From positions 1-56,758 of the IMG/VR virus record IMGVR_UViG_3300031566_000037: a stretch of DNA of 56,758 nt, one strand, 5' to 3'. How positions within the stretch are numbered: the stretch's first letter is position 1; every line of letters starts with the position of its first letter. Positions 5,635 through 56,758 of this stretch are shown here, piece by piece. Both the position numbers and the translations under genes were made by a program. This DNA comes from a virus. The notes under the pieces were generated by a model, which was not told the origin of the DNA, made no database searches, and saw only the letters and a list, made by a program, of their open reading frames with translations.

Positions 5635-6053
5635 AAGCCCGCCCCCTGCGGTAACCCAGCATCGTCGCCACAGGGTTTTGCGTTGGTCAATAGAACAAGC
5701 GCCTTCCCCAGGCGCCCGAGTATCTCATCTGTCAATCCGACACCGTCTGTGTGAGTTGGCGCCGAGTCCTGCAATAGATCAATCCCCGCCTTGAGTTCAG
5801 CGATTGCCTCGTCTGTCACGAGAGGCGAGTAACATATCACATCCCAAAAGGGCGGCGCCGTCCCCTCGGGTACTGGCGCGAAGTCGGGGGATTGCATTAT
5901 CAATACGAAGCGTGCTCGGAGAGAATCATAAGCCGCGCCGATCATCACAAGATCTGCCGGCGGATCCTCGATGGCAACCCTCAATATCGCCTCCTCCAGA
6001 AATTCCGGGGTGACATGTAAAATGCGGATCCGGCGCTCTCCCGCTGTTGTCAT
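5631..6053 (-). CDS. hypothetical protein (140 aa)
   Basis: RBS GGGAGGAGGA. ATGA coupling to the downstream gene at 5631-5634. Confidence 0.6.
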   Translation of the reverse strand: MTTAGERRIRILHVTPEFLEEAILRVAIEDPPADLVMIGAAYDSLRARFVLIMQSPDFAPVPEGTAPPFWDVICYSPLVTDEAIAELKAGIDLLQDSAPTHTDGVGLTDEILGRLGKALVLLTNAKPCGDDAGLPQGAGL

Positions 6054-11162: not shown

Positions 11163-11593
11163 GGCGTATGCTCTCCCTTCATGTGTTCGGCAAATGCCCA
11201 GGCAATTTGCGCAGCCATCTTCAGCGACTCACTATTTGCACTCGCGTGCGGCGAACCAGGCATTGCGACGCAGCGCAGTAGTGTTATAACCTTGGCTGCG
11301 AATTCTGTGATCTGAGGGGCGATTGTGCTGTCAACCTGCAGATATTTTTGTAACAGAATCACAAATGCCTGGCGTTGTGTGAGTCCCTGAAGAGCCGGAT
11401 CGTCTACCTGTGCTTCAGCCATCTCTGTCATAACGCGCTTATAGAAAGCCCGCGTATTGTGCATCCCGGCATGTGCCCGCCGCGATGCTTCGGCCATGGC
11501 CTGAATAGGTATCGCCTCGGCTTTAGGCACCACCTCGGGTGAATCCCCTCCCTGGACAAGAAATACGAATGGTTTATCCGGCAGTCTTATCAC
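11159..11593 (-). CDS. hypothetical protein (up to 144 aa)
   Basis: ORF ATGA-coupled to the DUF932 gene. The start codon is uncertain. Confidence 0.5.
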   Translation of the reverse strand: MIRLPDKPFVFLVQGGDSPEVVPKAEAIPIQAMAEASRRAHAGMHNTRAFYKRVMTEMAEAQVDDPALQGLTQRQAFVILLQKYLQVDSTIAPQITEFAAKVITLLRCVAMPGSPHASANSESLKMAAQIAWAFAEHMKGEHTP

Positions 11594-12665
11594 CTCCCTC
11601 TTTTGGGATCCTCCGTTGTGTACATTTTTTTATCGCCTCTCGCACATCATCCCATTGGCCATCGATCTCTTTAAGAACTTCCCCGGCCAACCCGGTTGGT
11701 AGCCCGGCAGATTGGCAGGCGCGCTCAAAGATCCCCGACATCACCACGGCACTGTCCTCATTGACCCGTGCGATTGCATCGCGTGTGGCTGCGTCCGGAA
11801 TGATCCCGGGCTTGATCAATGCGGTCAATCTGTCATCGAGCGTTTTGAGCATCGCCCCTGCGCTTACCACTTCATCTTCGAATCCCCGGCTCAATCTCTC
11901 GAGCGCCGCCACCTCTCCCTGTATCTTCTGTTTGCGCGCCTGCCGTGTCTGCCATTCATCCAGTAACACAATCAGGTCTGGCACCGCCGTGGCGAATGCG
12001 GCGACGGTATATCTTCGGCGTGGCATCGTGATATAAATGGCTATCATCTGCTGCACCGTATCGAGCGGGTACGTCTCCAACACCGGCTTCAGCGCTGCGG
12101 TATCTCGTGACCAATTGACCAAATATTTGCGCTGCTTTTTCCGCAAATGCAGATCGCGGAACGCATTGATGGCCCCCATAAGCTTATCACGTGTATACGC
12201 CTGCGCTTTAAGCGCAGGCTCGCCGCCCTTGGCGGCGGCATTATCAGCGGAGTCTTTACTGAGTATACTTCGGGTGACACCGGTGTCACTTCTAGATATG
12301 ACAATATTGTCACTTCTGAGTTCAAAAGCGAGCAGGCTGGTCACGATTATGTACAGATTCGTTTGGCCCTGCCCGCGCCGCTCCTTCGTGAGATACCCTC
12401 GCTTGACGATTTCTTGAATGTGTCTAATCACATTCCGTTCGCTTTGCCCCCTTTCTTCGGCAATGCGCGCCAAGCCCGGGTAACAAAAGGGGTCGCCATC
12501 TTCAGTCAATGACGCTTCGTGATCCCATGCGAATTTTCTCAGCACCGCATAGGTGCGGAAGGCTCCATCCGACAGATCTGTGTCTGTGACGATGACGTAA
12601 TCTATCATCACAAACCCACGCTGCGCGCGTGGCCGGTCAAACCGGATCCCTATTTTGTCCGGCAT
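11574..12665 (-). CDS. winged-helix DNA-binding protein, putative replication initiator/organiser
   Basis: ATG at 12665 preceded by GGAAGGAG. LARIAEERGQSERNVIRHIQEIVKRGYLTKERRGQGQTNLY is a typical winged helix-turn-helix. Sits beside the SSB/ATPase genes. Confidence 0.5.
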   Translation of the reverse strand: MPDKIGIRFDRPRAQRGFVMIDYVIVTDTDLSDGAFRTYAVLRKFAWDHEASLTEDGDPFCYPGLARIAEERGQSERNVIRHIQEIVKRGYLTKERRGQGQTNLYIIVTSLLAFELRSDNIVISRSDTGVTRSILSKDSADNAAAKGGEPALKAQAYTRDKLMGAINAFRDLHLRKKQRKYLVNWSRDTAALKPVLETYPLDTVQQMIAIYITMPRRRYTVAAFATAVPDLIVLLDEWQTRQARKQKIQGEVAALERLSRGFEDEVVSAGAMLKTLDDRLTALIKPGIIPDAATRDAIARVNEDSAVVMSGIFERACQSAGLPTGLAGEVLKEIDGQWDDVREAIKKCTQRRIPKEGGDKTAG

Positions 12666-12684
12666 CGGTGGCTCCTTCCCGTTG

Positions 12685-13086
12685 CTAGAATGGCACCTCC
12701 CCGAATTCATCGAGTCCGCTCTGTTCGGGGTTGCGGTATTCCACAATTGACTCCCGCATCTTCCCGCGGCTCTCTTTGTGTTCAACAACCAGTTGCACCC
12801 TTAAGCCCACCACTTCGTGATCCCAATCGATATCGAGCGTGCCCTTGCTCGGTAGACCAAGGATTTCGAAGAGACGCCTTAACCTCCAGAGCGCCTGGGG
12901 CTGCAGGCTGAAATTGTCAAAAAGGTGACGCGGACTCTCGTCGATCCTGAAATCGAAGGCCATGTATGGTTGCTGCGATTTTTCGCCGAGACGTTCGTCG
13001 ATGGCCCATATCTGCGCCTGGTATATCCCCTCCGGCAGGAGCTCAAACTGCGGCCCATCATCTTCGGGGAATGTGATCCTCGTCAC
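12685..13086 (-). CDS. DUF669-like single-stranded DNA-binding protein
   Basis: GTG start overlaps the upstream stop (GTGA), RBS GGAGGTGAGG. LPEGIYQAQI...ALWRLRRLFEILGL resembles DUF669. The C-terminal LDEFGEVPF mimics the acidic ...PF tail of SSB. Confidence 0.6.
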   Translation of the reverse strand: MTRITFPEDDGPQFELLPEGIYQAQIWAIDERLGEKSQQPYMAFDFRIDESPRHLFDNFSLQPQALWRLRRLFEILGLPSKGTLDIDWDHEVVGLRVQLVVEHKESRGKMRESIVEYRNPEQSGLDEFGEVPF

Positions 13087-14129: not shown

Positions 14130-14379
14130 TTCGGTCTCCTATCGAGCAAAAGGTAAGCGTTCCCGTTCAGGTTTAGCGATGCCAGCCACTGGCGCGACGC
14201 CTAACAAAACCACCTCCTCCAGGCGCTGGAATAGGGCTGGCTCGCGGCCCCGTCTCCCCTGTGCCGCGATCGGCACTCCCCCCGGCCCCTACCCCTCGGC
14301 GCCGGAGAAAAGCCCACACGCGGCCTCTGTGGCCCTCAAAATCGCGGGGGGATAGGCCAGATCCCCACAATGCGGTGCT

Positions 14380-14527
14380 GTGGTAGGCAGATACCGCCCT
14401 GGCGGGAGCTACCCCTACCGGCAGAAGCCGCCTACCACCGCGACCCTATGGTAGCGAGAGATCGCAGCGGGACGCTCCTGTCCGGGCAGATGGCACGGAT
14501 CCGCACCGAACGTTACTGCGATCTCTC
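14380..14527 (-). promoter_or_regulatory. Structured intergenic element (two long stems)
   Basis: GTGGTAGGC (14380-14388) pairs with GCCTACCAC (14430-14438). GAGAGATCGCAG (14456-14467) pairs perfectly with CTGCGATCTCTC (14516-14527). I saw no ATG on the minus strand anywhere in 14130..14530. Confidence 0.4.
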
Positions 14528-14530
14528 TTT

Positions 14531-14743
14531 TCAGTCGGTCGGCGACGCCGAGGTTCCGAGGTCGATACCAAGATCGCTCTCGATATCGGAAGCGGAGAAT
14601 ACGTCGCCGACCAAAATATCATGTGGCAAAATGGCGTTGCAGAGAGGGCACAGATCATAGAGTTGCCCTTGGCGAGAATCAAAACGGCTCATCTCGTGTT
14701 CCGCACCGCAAGCGAGACAGATTACCAAGGCATCAATAAACAC
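14531..14743 (-). CDS. zinc-ribbon small protein (70 aa)
   Basis: Cysteine pairs CLACG...CPLC. Confidence 0.5.
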   Translation of the reverse strand: MFIDALVICLACGAEHEMSRFDSRQGQLYDLCPLCNAILPHDILVGDVFSASDIESDLGIDLGTSASPTD

Positions 14744-42723: not shown

Positions 42724-44277
42724 TTATTTCCCAAGCGAAGTGGCTTTAAGCCCACCGCGCGTCCTCTTGCCACAGGCGCTGGTGAAAAACCAAGATGCCA
42801 TCAGGCGATCGCCTGTATGCTCAACGGGATCGAAGCGTAACATATCATCTATCCATTCTGCCGATTGATGGTTCCTGGGGATCCGCCACATACGGTTTTC
42901 GAAGTCGACAGACATCGCGCGAACGCCCAGGGTAGGATCCGCCTTGTTCTTGCCCGTAGTAAAAGGATGCAACCGGATGGCCTTGGCGAATCGTTTAATT
43001 TCATCAAGCGCCATGGAGCCTTCGGATGGCGTGTTTTTGATGATGGCTCTAAAGATCTCATCGGCGCCTCTTAGGAACTGCAACAGATAATCCTGTGCCG
43101 AATTGTTTTCCACCTCAAACAGCACAGGCTTAAAACGATCCTGAATCTGACAGAAATTCTTGATGATGTCAACAAGTCCCATCCGGCCTGCGATGATATT
43201 GAGCACCACTTTTGTCCCATGCGGATCCACGCCGCCGATAAAAAACACCGTCTCATGTGCGCCGCGCTTCTTCTTGACCGCCAGGTCAACGCCGACATAG
43301 ACCTGCAGTTCATTATCGTCATAGCGGGAGACAAAATGCCTGCCTTCGGCCTCGGCCAGTTCAACGCATGTCTCAATCGCTGCCCGGCTGAAATCATCAC
43401 TCCCGCGTTCCTTGTCGGGGATATTCTTCATCGATCGTGCATACTCGATCGAGCTGACCTCGGCGAGTCTTTCCTTGCGGCGCCACTCCGGCCAACCACA
43501 GACCTCCCCCGATGGCATGATTTCAAGATCCGGCCAGAGATCATCGTCTGCATCATAGCGTTCGACGTGATAATTTGTATTCGCGGCAGCCCAATGCATC
43601 GCGTCTTCTGCGTGCCAGGCATTGCCGATCATCCAGAGGCGCGCCAGCGCGGTAAGCCTGGAGATCACCGTGTTCTTGACATATTCAATCACCCGCTTGC
43701 GCTGGCCCCGGGTTAGAGTGTTTTCGAAGTCGAGGATATCATCTAAGATAGCCAGGTCGAGGCGCGCTCCCATGATGTTCCCGTTCACCCCGACCGCCTC
43801 TACCGTATAATCCTTATTCGACAGATCCTTTCGCTCAACAACGATGTGACTGTCCTGCCAGCCCATGACTCGCCCGCGCCTGCGTTCAGGACGCACGTGT
43901 GGAAACACCGCCTGATAGCGTGCGTTATAGCCAATCGTCTGGCGGATCACGCCGAGAAATTTATGCGCCTGGCCAGCCGTATTGGAAACCAGCGCTGCGC
44001 GGATGTTGGTGTTCTTGCCGATCTCCCAGCTCAGGCGGCACACGGAAATTTGCATCGACTTCCCGTGCTCAACCGGAGCGAAAATAACCAGCCGCCGATA
44101 TTTATTGCAGAGATCCTGCCACTCGTCATGAAGGGGTTGTGCCTTCCAGCCGAAAACGTACTCGCCGAAGGTCGCCGGATCCTGCCTGGCTACCTGGATC
44201 GTGTCGCGTTCGTAAGCGCCGAGGTCGGCCTCCAGTAGATCCTGATCGTGCTCAATTTTCCCGGGGGAATCTGTCAT
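42724..44277 (-). CDS. terL: terminase large subunit
   Basis: ATG at 44277 (ATGA overlap). Walker A-like motif FAPVEHGKS. C-terminal nuclease-like region. Confidence 0.9.
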   Translation of the reverse strand: MTDSPGKIEHDQDLLEADLGAYERDTIQVARQDPATFGEYVFGWKAQPLHDEWQDLCNKYRRLVIFAPVEHGKSMQISVCRLSWEIGKNTNIRAALVSNTAGQAHKFLGVIRQTIGYNARYQAVFPHVRPERRRGRVMGWQDSHIVVERKDLSNKDYTVEAVGVNGNIMGARLDLAILDDILDFENTLTRGQRKRVIEYVKNTVISRLTALARLWMIGNAWHAEDAMHWAAANTNYHVERYDADDDLWPDLEIMPSGEVCGWPEWRRKERLAEVSSIEYARSMKNIPDKERGSDDFSRAAIETCVELAEAEGRHFVSRYDDNELQVYVGVDLAVKKKRGAHETVFFIGGVDPHGTKVVLNIIAGRMGLVDIIKNFCQIQDRFKPVLFEVENNSAQDYLLQFLRGADEIFRAIIKNTPSEGSMALDEIKRFAKAIRLHPFTTGKNKADPTLGVRAMSVDFENRMWRIPRNHQSAEWIDDMLRFDPVEHTGDRLMASWFFTSACGKRTRGGLKATSLGK

Positions 44278-45269
44278 CGCCCAACGTACCCTAACCCCTC
44301 GAGCCGTTTTAAAACCTCCGGATCCGCAGTCGGCCACGGCAGGGACGGCCCGGGTTGTTTAATGGAAAACCGGCGCAGAATCGTATTGAGCATCATGTGG
44401 TGATTGGCAGGTTCATAGACTTCACGAACGGCCAGCTGGATCGGCAATGGTGTCCGTGCGATGAGAGGAACCCGGATGAGTTCGGGAAACATCCCATAGG
44501 CATGAATACAAAAGCCCCGCTCGCCTAAGCCTTCACCGTGGTCGCCGGTAACGAAGATCTCGGCATCAGGAAAGGCGTCAAAGAGTTCAGGCATCTTCGA
44601 ATCGAGAAACCGGATCGCCCCATCATAAGCAGCGATGTAACACGCCGGATGGTTGGCGATGCGTTTGCCGAAATACCGCGAGCCCTCCGCTGTCCACTCC
44701 TGGCTATCCTCGCCGCACCACTCGATCAGCGCGCCGATCTTGTCGAGGATCTTCATGCCCGGCATCGCCATCGGCCCCCAGCGCTTCTTGTGGGTTTGCC
44801 AGAGAGCATCCCCGACAAAGCGCTGGTGGTTGCCCCAGGGCTGATACATCGCATGCGTCTCCTGCAGGTGCAGCACCCCGAAAAACTCCGGGCGGCCTCG
44901 ATGCGCAGCGATAAAGGCATCGATCATCTGATTCGCCGTTGGCCTCTTGCCGCGCCGGTGGTACCACGCAGGCCAGGATTTGAAGTCGAAAACGCTCGTG
45001 GCCATGCGCTGGCCTGCCGGTGTCGCGTTGCCGCTGTAGAATGATGTGTGGATCTTGTTGCGGGAGATCGTCAGTGCATAGTTGGCGATCCGCTGGAACG
45101 TCCCCTTAGTCGCCGAGGCGTTAGACTTAAAATCGTTCCACATCAAACCCTTGGCTCCGGTTACGACGGAATCCAAGAACGGAGTCGTCTCGCGATCGTA
45201 CCCATAACAATGAATATGATCGCTCCGCAAACACTCGATCATGACAAGAATAACCTGTGTTTTATTCAT
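44274..45269 (-). CDS. alkaline-phosphatase-superfamily (sulfatase-like) hydrolase/transferase
   Basis: 331 aa. Motifs VILVMIECLRSDHIHCYGYD and IFVTGDHGEGLGERG. No CxPxR formylglycine motif seen. ATGA overlaps at both ends. Confidence 0.7.
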   Translation of the reverse strand: MNKTQVILVMIECLRSDHIHCYGYDRETTPFLDSVVTGAKGLMWNDFKSNASATKGTFQRIANYALTISRNKIHTSFYSGNATPAGQRMATSVFDFKSWPAWYHRRGKRPTANQMIDAFIAAHRGRPEFFGVLHLQETHAMYQPWGNHQRFVGDALWQTHKKRWGPMAMPGMKILDKIGALIEWCGEDSQEWTAEGSRYFGKRIANHPACYIAAYDGAIRFLDSKMPELFDAFPDAEIFVTGDHGEGLGERGFCIHAYGMFPELIRVPLIARTPLPIQLAVREVYEPANHHMMLNTILRRFSIKQPGPSLPWPTADPEVLKRLEGLGYVGR

Positions 45270-46126
45270 CTGAGATCCTCTATCGATGGCACTTCAAAAT
45301 CACAACCCTCTTCATCTGCACCATCGTCTCCGGCGTCATTATCAGCCGCTCGGTCAAGTCCTGTGGCTGCGAAACTAACATCAAGGTGTCCGCCGTTAGA
45401 TCCGGGATTGTCAGGATCGGGATCCCCCACAGGCTCTTCGGCGACCTCCTCGGCGGTAGCAGGGATGGCCTGGGTATCGCCCCCGGGCGGGACTTCAAAA
45501 AGGACTCCATGAAGGTCTCCTTCCTGCGGCGCATCCTTCACGCCACGCAATGCCATTTGCGTCCGCGCATCGGTTACGGTCGTTACTTGCTCCCGGCCCA
45601 GCAGCGTGCGGAGTTGTCGCAGGTGTTTGCGCACTGCCGGAATGTTGTCCGCCGGCACCTCCGCGAATTCCCCCTTGCCGCCTCCAGGCGACGCGTTGTT
45701 CGTTGTCTGATTGATAAAGGCAAAAACCGGCGACTGCTCGGTCTTGCCGAAACCCAAGATCATCGCCTGCAACCGGATCGCCTCGAGCACCCGCGCGTCA
45801 GCCGCTGTGCGTGCATTGTAGTCGGGTTCGGTCACTAACTGCGGTTTCTCCTCCTTGCCCTGGCGCACCTCCCGAACCTTCACGGCCTTGTCGGCGATCC
45901 TATTTTGCCGAGTAATTACCGTCCCGATCCTCGTGAGCATCTCGCCCACGGCACAGCCGTCAATGATCAGGAGATCGGTATAGCGCTTATAAATCATCTT
46001 CAGATCATTAACCACCGTCGCCCGGGTTACCTTCACCTCCTCGGCAATCTGCGTTGGGTTCGCCCCCCGCGCGGCAAGGCTCAAAACCTGCTTTTCACGT
46101 TCCCAGCGTTCCTGCCTATCCGACAT
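45266..46126 (-). CDS. putative terminase small subunit (HTH, acidic tail)
   Basis: ATG at 46126 lies 8 nt after GGAGGG. LSLAARGANPTQIAEEVKVTRATVVNDL is a helix-turn-helix. Assigned from position upstream of terL. Confidence 0.5.
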   Translation of the reverse strand: MSDRQERWEREKQVLSLAARGANPTQIAEEVKVTRATVVNDLKMIYKRYTDLLIIDGCAVGEMLTRIGTVITRQNRIADKAVKVREVRQGKEEKPQLVTEPDYNARTAADARVLEAIRLQAMILGFGKTEQSPVFAFINQTTNNASPGGGKGEFAEVPADNIPAVRKHLRQLRTLLGREQVTTVTDARTQMALRGVKDAPQEGDLHGVLFEVPPGGDTQAIPATAEEVAEEPVGDPDPDNPGSNGGHLDVSFAATGLDRAADNDAGDDGADEEGCDFEVPSIEDLR

Positions 46127-46805
46127 CCGTATCGCCCTCCGCAAGACCGACTGCCCCCAGGTACCCTCGCACCATTACCATCAGCGCCTTGCCCCGGGAA
46201 ACGCCTCCGGCTAACGCGCTGGCCCGCGTCAAGGCCTCCTCGAGCAGCGCCGGATCGTCCTCCACCACGAAGGAGACGATCTTCGGTCGCGTCCGCCCCG
46301 CCTCCTCCTCCTCGGCATCCAGGTCGACCTCTAAGGCATCGGATACCTTCGAAAGTTCAAGCGCATCCCGGAGCTCCGCCTCGCTGTAGGGGAGATGCGT
46401 CTCGAGGTCGTCGATCGATAGATCCGTCGACAGATCCTGAACCAGCTTCGCAAACAATGCTTGCACCGACTGCCCCTTGAGTTCGTTCAGGTTGATCGAT
46501 AGGATCTTCGCTTCACGATCGCCCAGGTCGACCACGCTGCAGGGGACGGCCGTGTAGTCTAACTCCTGCGCCGCCATCCAGCGATGATAGCCACCGAGGA
46601 TCTCCCAGCGCCCATCGTGCGGACGCACCACCAGCGGCTCTACAAAGCCCCGGGCTTTTATGTAAGCCCGGAGTTTCGCATATGTCTCCGCGTCCATGCG
46701 ATTCGGATTCCATGGATTAGGTACCAAATCGCCGATCGGAATTTCCCGAATATCCATCTTGCCCTCGCTCTCGCCCCGAGCCATGTCCACCACGGCCAGA
46801 GCCAT
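46116..46805 (-). CDS. ParB-like nuclease domain protein
   Basis: IPIGDLVPNPWNPNRMD...PLVV...ILGGYHRWMAAQ matches the ParB N-terminal domain. The true start may be 46757 (GAGGG RBS). Confidence 0.85.
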   Translation of the reverse strand: MALAVVDMARGESEGKMDIREIPIGDLVPNPWNPNRMDAETYAKLRAYIKARGFVEPLVVRPHDGRWEILGGYHRWMAAQELDYTAVPCSVVDLGDREAKILSINLNELKGQSVQALFAKLVQDLSTDLSIDDLETHLPYSEAELRDALELSKVSDALEVDLDAEEEEAGRTRPKIVSFVVEDDPALLEEALTRASALAGGVSRGKALMVMVRGYLGAVGLAEGDTDVG

Positions 46806-47106: not shown

Positions 47107-48126
47107 CTACCTCACGCGGATCACATACTCCACATTTGTCGCCCGATGCCGATCCGATGCCAGCGCTGCCAGGTGTGTGCATTTGATCTCCTCCACCTCT
47201 ATATCTTCACGGAACTTCCGGATGCTGTCAACTAGCTCCGCGATCGGAAACCCCTGGTTGCCACAGGATAGAACCCAGGTGGGAAACTTCTCGCAGGCTA
47301 TAAATAAATCCTCCAATGCCGATCGCGCCTCCTTCGTCGAGAATACACTGCGCGGCGCCTTCGATATCGCGCCCGCCAAGATCGAATCCAACACCCGAAG
47401 GCTCTGCTCATAACTCTGCGTGCCCACATACGGCGGATCCAGGTAGACCACGTCCCCCTCTACTCGATCGAGAAAGTCGAAGACGTCCAGCTGGTGCGCC
47501 TCGTTCTGAAGCCCGTTGGTGAATACCCCCTTGTTTACATACGACAGCACCCGCCTGGCAACCGTCCGCGGATGCCCCGCTATGTTCCGCGCCAAGATGT
47601 CACGAACGTAGTTCTGATTCATCTCCTCCCACTTCCCGTCCTCCGCCTGCTGGATGATCGTCTTCGCCCCGAAGTTCCCCGCCGGACGCATCCGTAAAAT
47701 GTACTTGATCAAAAGAAGCAGAAGCATCCACCGCTTGACACCCTCCGCTCGATGCGCCCAATAAAATGCCCGATCGAGAAAACGCGCGTGGCGTGTCGTG
47801 AATACCCCATAGGCGAAATGGTCGGCAATGAAGGTCTGTGGCTCCGGGGGCTTCACGAAAAGCCGATCGATGTCTAACTCGTCTAAGCGTACACGATCGT
47901 TTGCAATCAATGCCTGGCCGACAACATGACTCCGAAATGCAATGCCGTTCGCCAGTACCCGATAACCCCGAGCCTTCCCGAAAAGTGAGACGCTGCCGCC
48001 CCCCATGAAGGCATCCACCAGAACGGGGGCTTCCGAGGGCGGCGGGATCCACTTGAAGATGTGACCGAGTAGACGACGCTTGCCGCCCAGGTAGAGCGGC
48101 AGTGCCCGAAGCCTCGACCAGGCCAT
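47107..48126 (-). CDS. D12-class N6-adenine DNA methyltransferase (Dam-like)
   Basis: Motifs YLGGKRRL, FMGGGSV (FxGxG) and VYLDPPYV (DPPY). ATG at 48126 coupled to the upstream stop (TGATG). Confidence 0.85.
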   Translation of the reverse strand: MAWSRLRALPLYLGGKRRLLGHIFKWIPPPSEAPVLVDAFMGGGSVSLFGKARGYRVLANGIAFRSHVVGQALIANDRVRLDELDIDRLFVKPPEPQTFIADHFAYGVFTTRHARFLDRAFYWAHRAEGVKRWMLLLLLIKYILRMRPAGNFGAKTIIQQAEDGKWEEMNQNYVRDILARNIAGHPRTVARRVLSYVNKGVFTNGLQNEAHQLDVFDFLDRVEGDVVYLDPPYVGTQSYEQSLRVLDSILAGAISKAPRSVFSTKEARSALEDLFIACEKFPTWVLSCGNQGFPIAELVDSIRKFREDIEVEEIKCTHLAALASDRHRATNVEYVIRVR

Positions 48127-48374
48127 CAGCGATTGCCCCCAAGATCCCTGCAGATCGCGTTCGGACAATTGTGCACCAGGCCACTCCCGATGTGAAACTC
48201 GGTCGGCTCAAAAAACGTCACGTTGATCATGACGCCATCGCCCAAGGCAAGCAGCCGAATGAGCCGGTGCCGGACAGTGCGCAATGTCAAAGGGTTCCAG
48301 TGACGCGAGATCCAGCCGCCGAGGCGCCAGAGCCGTCTGTGGCGCGAGCGCAAACACCAGGTGAGAAAATCCAT
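48126..48374 (-). CDS. hypothetical basic protein (82 aa), first gene of the late block
   Basis: ATG at 48374 lies 7 nt after AAGGAGG. Confidence 0.5.
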   Translation of the reverse strand: MDFLTWCLRSRHRRLWRLGGWISRHWNPLTLRTVRHRLIRLLALGDGVMINVTFFEPTEFHIGSGLVHNCPNAICRDLGGNR

Positions 48375-48475
48375 GACGCGCCTCCTTGAGAGATTGAGGT
48401 CGATGAGCACCCGCTGGAAGCCCACCGACCTCACCCAAAACGGAGTGTGACGAGGATGAGTCGTCAGCGACGACC

Positions 48476-48504
48476 ACTCTACCATGGCCCGGGAGTGACG
48501 ACAA
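48476..48504 (-). promoter_or_regulatory. candidate sigma70-like promoter with AT-rich UP-like tract
   Basis: Minus strand reads gaatttttata TTGTCG, then a 17-nt spacer (tcactcccgggccatgg), then TAGAGT. Confidence 0.4.
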
Positions 48505-48763
48505 TATAAAAATTCACCCCGGCGTTCCCGTGTGTGAAAAATGACGACCAAGACAAGACACCCGGGCGATCCTGCCCGTGATCAGAGGTGGGGGATAGAG
48601 CAAAATTCGTGCCATCGATTTACGCTAATTTGCATTCTGCGCTGCCGGCCTTGCATGTTTTCGCACAGATTCTGCTTTGCTGTGAGTGCCCTTGCTGATC
48701 GTTGCCGACCCTTGTCGATCAAACTGATCATTTGAGCAATCGCTGTCGTCATTTGACCGGGTT

Positions 48764-48780
48764 TTGCACATGCTGTGCAA
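48764..48780. promoter_or_regulatory. Perfect palindrome TTGCACA-tgc-TGTGCAA (operator-like)
   Basis: 7-bp arms read directly from the sequence. Lies within the spacer/-10 of a plus-strand TTGACC-17 nt-TGCAAT promoter-like motif at 48753..48781. Confidence 0.5.
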
Positions 48781-48972
48781 TCAGTGTGGAACGTTGTGTT
48801 CTACAGTCACGGTGTTTGCTGATTGTGACACCTGGACAGCTGCTGTCCGCTTTTGCAGATAGCGAGCTTTAGAGTCACGCTCCTTGCACATGCTTGCGTA
48901 TGCGTGTGGAATCGCACTGATTTCTTGGTCAGGTTTGGCAGATTGTGTGCTTTGGTGTGGGTGATTTCGCAG

Positions 48973-49432
48973 GTGAGTGGACAGAGTGGTGCCCTGGTGC
49001 TGCTCGGTGCGGGCGAAGTGGGCTGCGGAGAGTGGAATTTGCACTCACATTTCCACAGAAGTGGGCTGCGGAGAGTCGTATGTGGGTGCTTTTTCAGTCG
49101 GAAGTGGGGCGATAGTGGCAGGGTCAGTGATGCTCCCGGGGTGATGGTGGAGCCATGGTGGGCTGCGCGGAGTCGATGTGACACTTGATTTGAGGGCAAA
49201 GTGGGCTGCGAAGACTGTGATTATGACTCACATTCCACCGTCAGTGGGCTGGAATAGTGGGTGTTATCACCCAGGACACGACTGATGCATGACTGTGTGT
49301 GTCCGCCAGGCGGCGCCGGTGGGACGCCGTCCCAGGATATGACTCATTATTACACTCATGTTTCACTCGAAGTGGGCTGCGCTGACTCAAACGTGAGTGC
49401 TTTTTCAGCCGAAAGTGGGCTGCCCGCCCGGG
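48973..49432 (+). repeat. Phased array of ~18-bp direct repeats (iteron-like), core GTGGGCTGCGgAGaGTsG
   Basis: Core starts at 48973 (degenerate), 49018, 49061, 49104, 49158, 49201, 49244, (49319 degenerate), 49372 and 49415. The spacings are mostly exactly 43 bp. Confidence 0.8.
49257..49279. repeat. 23-bp repeat GTGGGTGTTATCACCCAGGACAC, copy 1
   Basis: 22 of 23 bases identical to 49915..49937. Contains the inverted repeat GGGTG-n4-CACCC. Confidence 0.8.
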
Positions 49433-49443
49433 GAAGTCATGAC

Positions 49444-49461
49444 TGTCACATGCCTGTGACA
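49444..49461. promoter_or_regulatory. Perfect palindrome TGTCACA-tgcc-TGTGACA (operator-like)
   Basis: 7-bp arms. Related in form to the 48764 palindrome (shared CACATGC-TGTG core). Adjacent to the GTCATGAC palindrome at 49436-49443. Confidence 0.5.
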
Positions 49462-49811
49462 CATCCTCTGGTGGGTGAAAACCCGCAGATATTGGAGAGT
49501 TCTTTTGAAGGCAATGTGGTAGCCTGTCTAACTTTAGCGATCCAGAGACGCGAGCCTGCTGGCGCTTCCCGGGTGCCCGGGGGCAGCCGCGAGCTCCCGG
49601 ATCCTCCAGACAGCACACCTGTAATCGCCCGTAACGGCGGCCTCTCCCGCATGATCGCATAAAAGGCATTATGTCAACTTGGCTGAAATGCGCAGGTTTT
49701 GCACCTGTTGATACTATGACATCCCCGGGTGTGTTCCCCGCGCGGCGAACATCCCGCGAGCGCCGCCGGACATGTCCACAATCCGTCCACACACTGTGGA
49801 TAACCGACCGG

Positions 49812-49877
49812 AGTGACCACTTTTGAAGTCATATGCGACTGTCGAGCGACTGTCGAAAGTGACCACTTTTAGAGTCA
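49812..49877. repeat. Composite repeat: AGTGACCACTTTTGAAGTCA, 2x GCGACTGTCGA, AGTGACCACTTTTAGAGTCA
   Basis: 20-mers at 49812-49831 and 49858-49877 differ at 2 positions. They flank a tandem 11-mer at 49835-49856. Confidence 0.8.
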
Positions 49878-49914
49878 GCAAGCAGTCATGCCGGAGTCAT
49901 GGATCAGTCATGCG

Positions 49915-49937
49915 GTGGGTGTTTTCACCCAGGACAC
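49915..49937. repeat. 23-bp repeat GTGGGTGTTTTCACCCAGGACAC, copy 2
   Basis: See 49257..49279. Confidence 0.8.
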
Positions 49938-50131
49938 ACCCTCACAGTCATCCTGTGAGTCATCCTCGCAGGATCCCCGGGGTAGCCCCGGAAACGAAGG
50001 CCACAGAGCGCCCGTGTGCGTCGACCGCAAGCCCTCGCGGCTCCCAGGTCGTATCCCCGGCGATCGCCTCACACACGCGACGTGTGCGCGAACCTGCCCC
50101 CGGCATGCCCTAGTGTATGGGTGAAATAAGC

Positions 50132-50165
50132 AAAAAAAAGACCGACCGGAGGGTGCTCTTCCCGG
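50132..50165 (-). terminator. Possible terminator of the early block (T8 tract)
   Basis: On the minus strand a short GC stem (CCGG...CCGG, only 4-5 bp) is followed by tcggtc and TTTTTTTT (50132-50139). It lies about 80 nt after the stop at 50221. The stem is weak. Confidence 0.35.
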
Positions 50166-50220
50166 GCAGAGGCAGATTTACCGCCCTAACCATATGGCCC
50201 ATATAGCCCCCGCAATCGCC

Positions 50221-54362: not shown

Positions 54363-54754
54363 GACTTAGGATCCAGCACCTTCGCCAGCCAGAGGCGGTC
54401 CTTAACGGTTACAGCCTCGGCGCGTGGCGTATGCAAGATCGCGCGCAGCGCCTTCCGCACCGCTTCGATCCCATGCAGCCGCCCCTTCAGTTTCGATGTG
54501 TCCAGGTGCTTCGCCTTATTCGCACGGATCTCCGTCTGGATCGCGGTGACCTCGTGCCGCAGGGATTCCTTGAGCACAATCAACTGGCGCCGGATGAAGA
54601 ACCCCTTAGTCACCCCGGTCGAAACCGCTGCCGTCGCCACAACCTGGGAGCGCACGAGGATACCCATCTGAGCCATGCGATCGATCGCGTCGGCCAGCAA
54701 GCGCACCTCATTCTGTCGATGCTGCTCCAGGTTCATTGCCTTCAGCCTATTCAC
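54359..54754 (-). CDS. hypothetical protein (131 aa)
   Basis: GTG start 7 nt after GGAGGG. Confidence 0.55.
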   Translation of the reverse strand: MNRLKAMNLEQHRQNEVRLLADAIDRMAQMGILVRSQVVATAAVSTGVTKGFFIRRQLIVLKESLRHEVTAIQTEIRANKAKHLDTSKLKGRLHGIEAVRKALRAILHTPRAEAVTVKDRLWLAKVLDPKS

Positions 54755-54766
54755 CCTGTCGCCCTC

Positions 54767-54937
54767 CTATCCGGCTTTAAATTCATGGTATGCCGTAATC
54801 CAGTCAGGATACCCGCGCGACTCTGCCTCCCGAGTAGCAAGCCCCTCTATGAGAGACTGGCTCTCACCCTCAAGCGGCCAGGGATCCGACACCATTATTA
54901 GATCCAGAAATGCTCGGAACTCTTTATCCTCCATCAT
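54767..54937 (-). CDS. hypothetical acidic mini-protein (56 aa)
   Basis: ATG at 54937 preceded by GGAAGGAGGC. ATGA overlap. Confidence 0.5.
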   Translation of the reverse strand: MMEDKEFRAFLDLIMVSDPWPLEGESQSLIEGLATREAESRGYPDWITAYHEFKAG

Positions 54938-55098
54938 GCCTCCTTCCACCACTGGCGGCACGTCTCGCAGTAGTAGACCTCCGTCCCATGGGCGCCGAGC
55001 ATCATGAGCATCGGCTCCTCGCATTCAGGACACAGCTCCTGGTCGACCGCTACCGCCACGATCGCAAGTTCGACCGGCTCAAAGTTAGGAAGTGACAT
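54934..55098 (-). CDS. zinc-ribbon mini-protein (54 aa)
   Basis: ATG at 55098 preceded by GGAGAGGAGA. Cysteine pairs CPEC...CETC. Confidence 0.5.
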   Translation of the reverse strand: MSLPNFEPVELAIVAVAVDQELCPECEEPMLMMLGAHGTEVYYCETCRQWWKEA

Positions 55099-55312
55099 CG
55101 CCGTCTCCTCTCCGGAGATATGGCGGCACGCACCGCGGATCCCCGTCCTTCGACCACAGCGGCGCTGGCGGCACAGGACAGAATGCCCGCCATATCTCCG
55201 CCCGCACCCAGCGCCTGAGCGCCGGGTACTTCCGATCATGGGGATCCTCCGGCAGCAATCGGATCTCCGCATGCGCTACAATGGCCTTGAGTATTGCTAT
55301 CTGAAGATCCAT
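55085..55312 (-). CDS. hypothetical protein (75 aa)
   Basis: TAATG coupling. Confidence 0.4.
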   Translation of the reverse strand: MDLQIAILKAIVAHAEIRLLPEDPHDRKYPALRRWVRAEIWRAFCPVPPAPLWSKDGDPRCVPPYLRRGDGDVTS

Positions 55313-55536
55313 TATGTCATAAACCTCATGCGGCGCCGGTAGAACTCCCGCGCCTCATCGTAAAGTACCTCGCCGATCTCAGCGGCCTCCTCACAGTGGT
55401 GCTGGCTATCGCCCCAGGTAATGCATTCGATTGTCCCCGCGTCCTCATTGAGCAATATCACCACCACCTTGTTACCGCCGAACTGTGTCGCAAACCCCTT
55501 GGCTGCCTGGATCCGTGGCGTTAGATTCCCGGCCAT
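55312..55536 (-). CDS. hypothetical protein (74 aa)
   Basis: RBS GGAGAGGAGA. Confidence 0.55.
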   Translation of the reverse strand: MAGNLTPRIQAAKGFATQFGGNKVVVILLNEDAGTIECITWGDSQHHCEEAAEIGEVLYDEAREFYRRRMRFMT

Positions 55537-56025
55537 CTATGTCTCCTCTCCGGACGCCTCCTCAAGCCCACCATCGGGATCCCCCTCGGCCTCGCCTTCA
55601 TTCAGGGATAAGCCCTGGCTCTCGCCCGCGCCTGCCGCCCCGTCGTCGGCATCGGGAGCGGCATCGCCATAAGGCAGCTGTGGCGCTTCGATCGCAATCG
55701 TAACCATCACCCGCTCGCCGAGCATGCCGATGAGGTTTTGGACATCGGTTTCAGAATAATCCCCCCGCGCCAGGGTAACCGTAAGGGAATGCTCCCGCAT
55801 CCCGCCCCTGATCTTTGCCTTCGGGTGTACGTCCTTAAGGATGAATTCCGTTCTCACGCTGGCCATTGTCCCTGATCCTTCCAGTATCGGATGATGATAT
55901 TTGATAGGCTTCGCTTTAATGTCCTGCGCCACGCAGACCAGGCAAAGGCCACCCGGGGTGGCGCCATCCCGTCCGCATCGGCTGCAGGCTTTGTCCATAT
56001 CTGCCCTGACCACTAATCGTTCCAC
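55537..56025 (-). CDS. hypothetical protein with N-terminal zinc ribbon and acidic tail (~163 aa)
   Basis: GTG at 56025 lies 6 nt after GAGGTG. Cysteine pairs CSRCG...CLVC. Confidence 0.5.
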   Translation of the reverse strand: MERLVVRADMDKACSRCGRDGATPGGLCLVCVAQDIKAKPIKYHHPILEGSGTMASVRTEFILKDVHPKAKIRGGMREHSLTVTLARGDYSETDVQNLIGMLGERVMVTIAIEAPQLPYGDAAPDADDGAAGAGESQGLSLNEGEAEGDPDGGLEEASGEET

Positions 56026-56035
56026 GTGAAACACC

Positions 56036-56284
56036 TCAGAATAGTTCGCCCTGTCCCTTTCGCTTGGCTGCAGGTTCCGCATGCGCGCGTGGCTCCGGCG
56101 GTATCGCCGCGGCCTTCTCGCGGACAGCCTTTGCCTGCGCCTTCCGGCAGGCTATTGTCCGGTCGACCTGCTCCGCCAGGGCGCCATCAAAACACATCCA
56201 GCACCTGGGCACCCCACCAAACACCACCATGGCATATGCCCCGCATCGACACCGGAGTGTCTTGTTACCGTACTGGTTGCTCAT
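56036..56284 (-). CDS. zinc-ribbon protein (82 aa)
   Basis: ATG at 56284 preceded by GAGAGG. Cysteine pattern CRCG...CWMC. Confidence 0.5.
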   Translation of the reverse strand: MSNQYGNKTLRCRCGAYAMVVFGGVPRCWMCFDGALAEQVDRTIACRKAQAKAVREKAAAIPPEPRAHAEPAAKRKGQGELF

Positions 56285-56510
56285 GTCTGAGCCTCTCGAT
56301 CCGTTCCATCTCATCACGCCAGGCACGCCGCACCATTCTCAGCCGATGCTGATCGGAGAAGCGCTCCTCGAGGAATTCGATATAGAGCCGCCGCCAATCG
56401 AGCGTGCGCAGAAGCATGTCGATCTTGCCGCGGTTATGGTTCCACACCGTAAATCCGGCAGTACCATAGATCGCCCCGAGTGCGGCGACCACTATCAATG
56501 CAATGTTCAT
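56265..56510 (-). CDS. N-terminally membrane-anchored protein (81 aa), first gene of the early block
   Basis: ATG at 56510 preceded by AAAGGGGAGA. Transmembrane segment MNIALIVVAALGAIYGTAGFTVW. Confidence 0.55.
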   Translation of the reverse strand: MNIALIVVAALGAIYGTAGFTVWNHNRGKIDMLLRTLDWRRLYIEFLEERFSDQHRLRMVRRAWRDEMERIERLRHEQPVR

Positions 56511-56631
56511 CCGTCTCCCCTTTCTATGGGGCTGGCCGCAGGCGCCGTGAGATCCCGGCACCTACGACTCCTCAACAACGCTCGCCGCCCGGAGAGCTTT
56601 GTCGCCATGGCAGAGCGAACTCACACCCGCC

Positions 56632-56758
56632 ATGGCCAAGCGCCGCCTATCCCACTCCCCCTGTCGCTACACGCACCCCGAAGGGCTGATCGATCCGCCT
56701 CACTCAGCAGGGAGTGAAAACCTATCGAGTTGGCATTGTACAATCGCCCACTTTGTCC
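56632..56758. repeat. Terminal direct repeat, right copy (identical to 1..127)
   Basis: Exact 127-nt match to the window start. Confidence 0.95.

Follow-up and report, generated by a model that had tools for sequence, protein, structure and literature searches.

What would a phage use a run of short direct repeats for, when they lie almost exactly 43 bp apart and head its packaging genes? We addressed this question in a single genome and its relatives. The window analysed here, the whole 56,758-nucleotide stretch, begins and ends with the same 127 bp (bases 1–127 are identical to bases 56632–56758, an overlap at an arbitrary point), and so represents a 56,631-bp genome assembled as a circle.

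We find the array to be real: the 9-mer AGTGGGCTG is present six times within 49017–49422 and nowhere else in the genome on either strand, and AAGTGGGCT likewise has five copies in the array and none elsewhere. A search for AGTGGGCTGCG with up to two mismatches revealed seven matches in the array, all on the plus strand, and the eighth copy is the degenerate AGTGGGGCGAT at 49103 (Table 1). The original prediction had proposed nine to ten same-orientation repeats of about 18 bp. The common orientation holds for all eight copies, but eight is the full count: in a scan with a position matrix derived from them, the eight sites score 11–27 bits, whereas the further candidates at 48973 and 49319 stay below 8 bits. 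The repeat is also shorter than proposed, as its strongly conserved part spans 10–11 bp, AGTGGGCTGC(G), with 96% pairwise identity among copies. Identity falls to 57% over the following 8 bp and to 41% over the rest of the spacer, where 26% would be expected at random; an invariant T stands 9 bp upstream of the core. The core is asymmetric, being neither an inverted repeat nor a dyad. The contrast between core and spacers, together with the restriction of the core to this 400-bp stretch, indicates that both core and unit length are constrained.

Table 1 Coordinates of the repeat array and of the features around it.
Feature	Position	Strand	Description
Whole array	49017–49424	+	8 co-oriented core sites in 3 blocks (3+3+2)
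Core copy 1, AGTGGGCTGCG	49017–49027	+	0 mismatches, 26.9 bits
Core copy 2, AGTGGGCTGCG	49060–49070	+	26.2 bits
Core copy 3, degenerate AGTGGGGCGAT	49103–49113	+	11.1 bits
Core copy 4, GGTGGGCTGCG	49157–49167	+	1 mismatch, 23.3 bits
Core copy 5, AGTGGGCTGCG	49200–49210	+	24.8 bits
Core copy 6, AGTGGGCTGGA	49243–49253	+	2 mismatches, 16.9 bits
Core copy 7, AGTGGGCTGCG	49371–49381	+	23.1 bits
Core copy 8, AGTGGGCTGCC	49414–49424	+	1 mismatch, 17.4 bits
Intergenic control region holding the array	48375–50220		~1.85 kb; only large non-coding gap of the genome
Second repeat family, two copies (TTGCACATGCTGTGCAA..GTGTGGAA)	48764–48911	+	Homologue of the unit amplified in relative L002
Perfect sigma-54-type −24/−12 element, TGGCACGAATTTTGCT	48599–48614	−	Only perfect TGGCAC-N5-TTGC in the genome
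Large terminase (TerL)	42724–44337	−	phrog_38, E = 1e-52
Putative small terminase (TerS), 292 aa	45266–46144	−	N-terminal helix-turn-helix, then long helices, acidic tail
Last early gene, 126-aa Cys-rich protein with helix-turn-helix-like segment	50221–50601	−	ORF from sequence

Start-to-start intervals are 43, 43, 54, 43, 43, 128 and 43 bp, exactly as had been claimed, with 43 bp in five of the seven. Placement of all sites on one face of the helix, also part of that claim, follows trivially within the blocks; across the blocks, phase is coherent at 10.75 bp per turn (R = 0.974) with p ~0.07 against a null that takes the within-block spacing as given and randomises the two inter-block gaps, and to this extent the claim falls short. 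The two partly repeated spacer classes proved real, class A (49017 and 49200) being 58% identical and class B (49060 and 49371) 79%. Furthermore, an 86-bp two-unit segment is duplicated (49039–49108 versus 49350–49419, 77% match). Tandem Repeats Finder, suggested for recovering the repeats, failed to pick up the array, owing to the divergence of the spacers.

A coding-potential scan found no coding signal in the array region, Rfam gave no match, tRNA scans returned nothing, and predicted RNA folding was not beyond that of shuffled sequences (z-scores −1.26 and −1.01). These results indicate that the array acts as DNA. It is not a CRISPR locus either: its cores measure 10–11 bp compared with CRISPR repeats of at least 23 bp, its spacers fall into repeated classes, and no cas genes were found.

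The setting is that of a junction between early and late genes. Every credible gene lies on the minus strand by a codon-usage scan, and the cores, on the plus strand, are thus antisense to all phage genes. Read along the minus strand, the order is the 126-aa gene, a T-rich terminator-like stretch, the gap, a Dam-like D12 methylase, a ParB_N protein, the 292-aa helix-turn-helix protein, a sulfatase-like protein, TerL and the portal; the gap consequently separates the last early gene from the late operon, directly upstream of the packaging genes. Family searches also identified structural genes downstream of the portal gene, an M15 endolysin, and an early/replication block comprising an O-like initiator (11574–12788), Sak4, a PD-(D/E)XK exonuclease and RusA, and scans of the phage proteins with PHROGs and Pfam yielded no integrase, ParA, repressor or sigma-54 activator. 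The phage is remote from cultured ones: TerL is at most ~25% identical to theirs, and a DNA search found no similarity between the gap and cultured phages. For the methylase, the nearest homologues come from metagenome-assembled genomes of Eisenbacteria, Latescibacteria and Zixibacteria.

Other repeat families, 7- to 30-fold more frequent here than elsewhere in the genome, share this gap with the array. They include TTKCAC, (A)TGACTC in runs with an 11–12-bp period, two TGGGTG-N4-CACCCA palindromes, two AAGTGGTCACTT palindromes and a cluster resembling DnaA boxes. The first copy of the TTGCACATGCTGTGCAA..GTGTGGAA family contains a perfect inverted repeat with 7-bp arms and a 3-bp spacer. Searching IMG/VR for the conserved gap element CTGCGGGWTTTCACCCAC gave two unrelated chance matches. 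At the late-gene end, a 141-aa ORF (48126–48551) was considered as a gene and rejected, since only its last 82 codons make up an inserted small ORF, which is absent from the relative L001; the 245-bp insertion carrying this ORF lies, relative to L001, between the ribosome-binding site and the methylase start.

We then compared the locus among relatives. In L001 (an IMG/VR relative, ~94% identical), all sites and spacings are kept and the array contains no indels. In L002, whose TerL is 79% identical, the motif is absent, and the same position upstream of the methylase is occupied by 5.9 tandem copies of a 41-bp unit whose sequence is different; the window itself holds two to four degenerate copies of that 41-bp unit at 48760–48960. 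L003–L005 (TerL 64% identical) carry arrays of 10- and 20-bp period in the homologous gap. The spacing is therefore kept in homologous regions, at 43 bp in the window and L001 and at 41 bp in L002, as the original prediction required of a functional array. A phased array is what is conserved at this locus, with the four-turn unit held between the two closer lineages and the sequence replaced. A phage protein that co-evolves with its site would be expected to leave this pattern, an architecture that persists while its sequence is recoded. An identical 3+3+2 block plan in the window and L002 was also considered and was dropped as not significant.

Among distant TerL relatives, L030 has eight 23.5-bp direct repeats between a helix-turn-helix gene and TerL, and L074 has ~24 GCGAC repeats directly upstream of the ORF preceding TerL. 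Genes of the TerS family and arrays co-occur in all three lineages in which the gap is visible, and the gap is missing from unrelated prophages that have the methylase–ParB_N–TerS order with a TerS of another family. A methylase-homologue search led to unrelated prophages sharing only the methylase–ParB_N(–TerS) module, with no array; an attP site was considered here, since one methylase-bearing prophage abuts a tRNA, and was rejected for a genome that has no integrase. A TerS-family profile run over IMG/VR found no further lineages. A gapped core pattern, too permissive and matching many unrelated sequences among metagenome and viral contigs, gave no new relative among the matches listed, the only relative there being the known IMG/VR contig.

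These comparisons bear on whether the repeats do anything at all. They could be the functionless remnant of tandem duplications, a decaying 43/86-bp satellite, as the 86-bp duplication would suggest; between the window and L001, moreover, 2 of 87 positions are substituted in cores and 22 of 333 elsewhere, an excess outside the cores that is not significant (p = 0.19). We consider such a remnant very improbable: neutral decay would erode cores and spacers equally, the unit length is exact in five intervals with no indels relative to L001, and independent arrays stand at the same locus in two other lineages. Conservation confined to the core, the indel-free array of L001, the arrays of sister lineages at this locus and the lack of coding or RNA signal together support an array of protein-binding sites. 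The original prediction had named an initiator, a small terminase or a ParB-type protein as cooperative binders. Co-oriented sites acting at the DNA level agree with that proposal; the initiator and the ParB-type protein are disfavoured for the reasons given below, and the small terminase is the best supported of the three.

An origin of replication, primary or secondary, would have the repeats serve as iterons for the O-like initiator, in the manner of SPP1 oriR, which binds an initiator encoded far away from it. Besides the iteron-like architecture, the gap contains the only perfect DnaA box of the genome (49795–49803), 370 bp from the array, and three copies of TGTGACAC, found nowhere else, with GTGACAC half-sites like those of iterons inside the rep gene. 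GAAGTG precedes half of the array cores and also the in-gene iterons, and the GC skew flips sign locally at the gap. However, the rep gene lies ~20 kb away and already has iterons of its own, two palindromic 19-bp copies of AGAAGTGACAnnnnTGTCA placed 24 bp apart in its linker-coding region, which look like a lambda-like origin signature. The array spacing is 43 bp, not the ~22 bp (20–24 bp) of iterons, and no strong AT-rich unwinding element is apparent beside it: AT content peaks, inside the array, at 65% over 40 bp (genome 99th percentile 62.5%). The perfect DnaA box is not conserved in L001, although the TGTGGAC-repeat cluster around it is also present in L001 and L002, and the skew changes because one-strand coding is interrupted at the gap. 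An origin is thus decidedly unlikely.

The 43-bp unit is also that of F-plasmid sopC, and the array could be a centromere on which the phage ParB_N protein or a host ParB is loaded. The gene for a ParB/Noc-like protein lies 2.2 kb from the array, there is a near-canonical parS (CGTTCCACGTGAAACA) at 56018–56033 and a perfect one in the L002 gap, and the 41-bp units of L002 contain an imperfect dyad. Against this, PHROGs and Pfam scans of early and late proteins revealed no ParA, and neither an integrase nor a repressor points to a plasmid-prophage lifestyle, all genes being on one strand. The core shows no palindrome. In its N-terminal domain the ParB_N protein is similar to Noc and Spo0J, but the stretch aligned with their recognition helix, which is basic in those proteins, is acidic here (EAELRDALEL). 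Its C-terminus looks like a ribbon-helix-helix whose putative DNA-contacting strand, RPKIVSFV, is identical in L002, and this protein therefore cannot account for a motif that is missing from L002. Furthermore, methylase–ParB_N is a mobile two-gene module that occurs in unrelated prophages without arrays. For these reasons we regard a centromere as extremely unlikely.

Most likely, a DNA-binding protein of the phage docks at the array, and the small terminase is the probable one. Homologues of the 292-aa protein are found immediately upstream of TerL in every relative, and unrelated prophages with the same gene order have a clear TerS in this slot; because of this synteny we treat the protein as the putative TerS, an assignment to which a weak helix-turn-helix match is added. 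The helix-turn-helix matches are marginal, and the structure model is poor (mean pLDDT 47.8), its fold search being uninformative. Between the window and L002 the putative TerS is 50% identical, compared with 70–79% for the methylase, ParB_N protein, sulfatase-like protein, TerL and portal, and it is the fastest-diverging protein of the module. Its predicted recognition helix differs in each lineage (TRATVVND, SRNTVTED, SRETVSAD, GLDTVRKA, GVETVRHA). The conserved slot upstream of TerL, the fast divergence and the lineage-specific helix make the small terminase the best-supported binder. The helix changes appear to match the lineage-specific recoding of the arrays, a correspondence over three lineages that any fast-evolving pair would show.

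The array is positioned as a pac or cosB site would be, directly upstream of the methylase–ParB_N–TerS–sulfatase–TerL–portal operon, and we count the arrays of L030 and L074, beside terminase genes, towards the same reading. A Mu-F/SPP1-gp7-type head protein was called in relatives, and this protein, together with the circular assembly with its 127-bp overlap, fits a headful (pac) phage. We therefore lean, tentatively and with less than even confidence, towards a pac-like array recognised by the small terminase. The eight regular sites, in a non-transcribed spacer heading the late operon, would bind a phage-encoded, sequence-specific protein; the N-terminal helix-turn-helix of the putative TerS would read the AGTGGGCTGC core; and several oligomers of terminase, seated next to each other every four turns, would form a polar nucleoprotein complex. 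This complex would identify the DNA as belonging to the phage and bring in TerL to make the first headful-packaging cut, which would make the array a recognition region like SPP1 pacL/pacR or lambda cosB. A P1-type, Dam-regulated pac was rejected, as GATC is absent from the array although enriched genome-wide (574 versus 391 expected). We infer the binding of protein to the array, the identity of the binder and the outcome in packaging initiation alike.

Several observations weigh against TerS as the reader. Known pac sites lie within or next to terS, whereas 2.9–3.3 kb, including the methylase and ParB_N genes, separate the array from the putative terS downstream. To our knowledge, eight sites over 400 bp at 43-bp spacing also exceed any characterised pac or cosB region in size and spacing, and wrapping of the DNA around one TerS ring would not account for the array. 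Moreover, the DNA-binding domain of SF6 TerS binds pac DNA without sequence specificity (PMC4737164), and repeats in a pac region therefore need not be TerS sites.

The main rival to packaging recognition is control of late transcription, with the repeats as sites for a phage activator, an enhancer-like architectural protein or a roadblock at a late promoter. On one side of the array the early genes end in a terminator-like stretch; on the other lies the one perfect sigma-54 element of the genome, TGGCAC-N5-TTGC, the −24/−12 consensus. This element is in sense orientation, downstream of the array and ~210 bp upstream of the first late gene, and it is conserved in L001 and L002, where GGCAC-N5-TTGC is retained at the homologous spot. 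Sigma-54 promoters require upstream enhancer sites, and a perfect 7-3-7 inverted repeat, TGCAC-N7-GTGCA, resembling NtrC sites, stands ~170 bp upstream of the promoter. Strict co-orientation with transcription is also typical of orientation-dependent operators, and the L003 group has a TATAAT element ~100 bp downstream of where its arrays end.

Immediately ahead of the gap is the gene for the 126-aa protein, predicted to be of DNA-binding type; the protein is 87% conserved in L001 and has no family match. By analogy, this helix-turn-helix/Cys-rich protein would be the natural candidate binder, as late activators of the Ltr/RinA/Alt kind (~130 aa) are encoded just before terS and bind direct repeats (PMC13123087). 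However, the array lies ~400–820 bp upstream of the candidate promoter, far beyond the Ltr/Alt sites (−107 to −32), its eight sites at 43-bp spacing are far more than known late activators use, and conservation of the gene that precedes the gap does not extend from the window to the L003 lineage. Of what a sigma-54 enhancer would call for, the downstream −24/−12 promoter is present, but the core is not an inverted repeat as the dyad sites of enhancer-binding proteins typically are, and no enhancer-binding AAA+ protein (Sigma54_activat domain) was found among the phage proteins scanned; an enhancer-binding protein of the host could supply the activator but would not explain the lineage-specific recoding of the motif. 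Late-transcription control is accordingly possible, if somewhat unlikely. The putative sigma-54 late promoter suggests, in its own right, that the late genes may depend on the host RpoN system. Among the papers searched, none described phage late genes dependent on host RpoN, and a sigma-54-dependent late promoter would be very unusual for a phage. This putative promoter may be a more surprising by-product of the analysis than the array itself.

Phased direct-repeat arrays for cooperative protein binding are already known as a kind of element; the array described here is new as a variant, in that its unit spans four turns, only its core is conserved and close relatives have recoded it wholesale. 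A bolder reading, which we hold to be quite improbable, would join both candidate functions: the array and its 41-bp counterpart in L002 would constitute an undescribed phage landing pad, a sopC-like four-turn scaffold without ParA, on which a lineage-specific protein polymerises and couples firing of the sigma-54 late promoter to the initiation of headful packaging, the site being recoded while the unit length is kept. If the array is a packaging recognition region, it would be an unusually large and regular example, with eight sites at four helical turns, in a phage of an uncultured host. Close relatives with different arrays and different TerS recognition helices amount to a natural swap experiment, through which one could directly test how small terminases recognise pac DNA, a question of long standing.

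Finally, we compared the array with characterised systems. Sigma-54 enhancers, the upstream activating sites of NtrC-family proteins, resemble it in having a perfect −24/−12 promoter downstream and helically phased upstream sites able to act at a distance; their sites, however, are dyads, whereas the array core is asymmetric and lineage-specific, and no enhancer-binding protein is among the phage proteins scanned. The repeats of the Ltr/RinA/Alt systems are similar in that the gene for a ~130-aa regulator lies immediately upstream and direct repeats precede a terS-containing operon (PMC13123087). They differ in number and distance, with four repeats within ~100 bp of the transcription start compared with eight at 400–820 bp from the candidate promoter, and in promoter type, which is sigma-70 there and, in the candidate here, sigma-54.

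Iteron origins (lambda ori, P1 oriR/incA and plasmid iterons) share co-oriented repeats, the cooperative loading of a single protein as proposed here, and a DnaA box in the same intergenic region. Their usual spacing is 20–24 bp, about half that of the array, whose presumed initiator is moreover distant with iterons of its own and which has no clear unwinding element. F-plasmid sopC consists of twelve 43-bp direct repeats bound by SopB (PMC3177203), and the 43-bp unit, the tandem co-oriented arrangement and a nearby ParB-family gene all recur here. The sopC units, however, are near-identical over all 43 bp, each with a 16-bp inverted repeat, compared with an asymmetric core of 10–11 bp only; in addition, the phage has no ParA and its ParB_N protein no credible recognition helix.

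The packaging sites of SPP1/SF6 (pac) and lambda (cosB) remain to be compared. They have two to four sites per set, whereas eight are found here over ~400 bp with a strict 43-bp unit. The R-sites of lambda, like the sites here, lie tens of base pairs apart. The candidate array also differs in that the putative terS is 2.9–3.3 kb off, with two genes between. In the SPP1 pac region, three sets of direct repeats span promoters and the start of terS (PMC4737164). Like the array, the SPP1/SF6 pac and lambda cosB regions are short direct-repeat sets in non-coding DNA at the head of a terminase or late operon, overlapping the late promoter region (PMC4737164). Furthermore, all are polar elements whose reader is, or would be in the case proposed here, an N-terminal TerS helix-turn-helix, and in all of them specificity varies among relatives.

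The late operon is preceded by a sigma-54-type -24/-12 promoter, the sole perfect match to this element genome-wide (see the table). The element is kept in two relatives, at 5893-5906 of the ~94%-identical L001 and at 1642-1655 of L002 (79% TerL identity), and RpoN may be needed for expression of the late and packaging operon. Yet the phage has no gene for an enhancer-binding protein, and the literature searched did not describe any phage late promoter of the sigma-54 -24/-12 type. Other operator-like elements lie in the non-coding gap that holds the 43-bp array, and related versions of them are present in L002.

Features and their coordinates (in the window unless another sequence is named).
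Feature	Position	Strand	Setting
Perfect sigma-54-type -24/-12 promoter TGGCACGAATTTTGCT	48599-48614	minus	~210 bp upstream of first late gene
Two TGGGTG-N4-CACCCA palindromes, GGACAC after each	49258-49273, 49916-49931		array gap, operator-like
Two AAGTGGTCACTT palindromes	49812-49822, 49858-49868		array gap, operator-like
(C)ATGACT(C/G) runs, 11-12-bp spacing	49872-49913, 49937-49973		array gap, operator-like
One perfect DnaA box and two TGTGGAC repeats, clustered	49766-49805		array gap, operator-like
245-bp insertion relative to L001	48127-48371		between conserved ribosome-binding site and methylase start
ParB_N protein gene, three-part architecture	46116-46805
Sulfatase/phosphoethanolamine-transferase-like gene	44274-45269		Pfam Sulfatase, E=1e-18
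Near-canonical parS CGTTCCACGTGAAACA, 1 mismatch	56018-56033		within 181-aa gene 55537-56082
Perfect parS TGTTCCACGTGAAACA	L002 36-51		L002 non-coding gap
Eight 23.5-bp units GCTTTCAAGTCACACCCCATCT	L030 2279-2500		between HTH gene and TerL
~24 copies of GCGAC-centred repeat, 28-39 bp apart	L074 3880-4720		directly upstream of ORF preceding TerL
Repeat GAGATACC...CCTTTCCA, 72-74-bp period, ~9 copies	L067 14852-15421		distant viral contig
GC-rich non-coding stretch, ~430 nt	14130-14560	minus	upstream of Sak4 gene
Two 19-bp repeats AGAAGTGACAnnnnTGTCA, 24 bp apart	12271-12317		linker-coding part of O-like initiator gene rep, 11574-12788

Downstream of the sigma-54-type promoter, the insertion ahead of the methylase contains an ORF of 82 codons that is rich in Arg and Cys and matches no family, and the sulfatase-like gene sits between the putative small and the large terminase genes, a position kept in L002, L006 and L091. 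The methylase-ParB_N pair followed by TerS forms a module that recurs in unrelated prophages (L094-L098) of metagenome-assembled genomes of the Eisenbacteria, Latescibacteria and Zixibacteria types; a tRNA gene adjoins one of these prophages. The D12/Dam-type methylase is encoded in a GATC-rich phage genome, with this site strongly over-represented across the whole window (574 sites vs ~391 expected from dinucleotide content; roughly 10 per kb). GATC is absent from the 43-bp array.

Both parS matches, that of the window with its single mismatch and the perfect one of L002, are far below chance expectation. The ParB_N protein combines a Noc/Spo0J-like N-terminal domain, in which the GERR box is altered to GGYHRW, with an acidic pseudo-HTH and an RHH-like C-terminus (KIVSFVVE...GGVSRGKALMVMV). 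It does not look able to read the two parS sites, and host ParB may therefore play a part there. A ~2-kb segment (54606-56650) that includes the gene with the parS-like site is missing from the IMG/VR contig of slices L001 and L252, which outside this segment is 93-96% identical to the window.

The distant TerL relatives L030 and L074 have their own repeat arrays adjoining the terminase genes, and the regular repeat of L067 could be a CRISPR-like array.

Elsewhere in the window, the stretch upstream of Sak4 has many self-complementary segments and gave no Rfam match at gathering thresholds. A third GAAGT lies 23 bp beyond the paired repeats in the rep gene, and these repeats are a candidate for an in-gene origin in the style of lambda.
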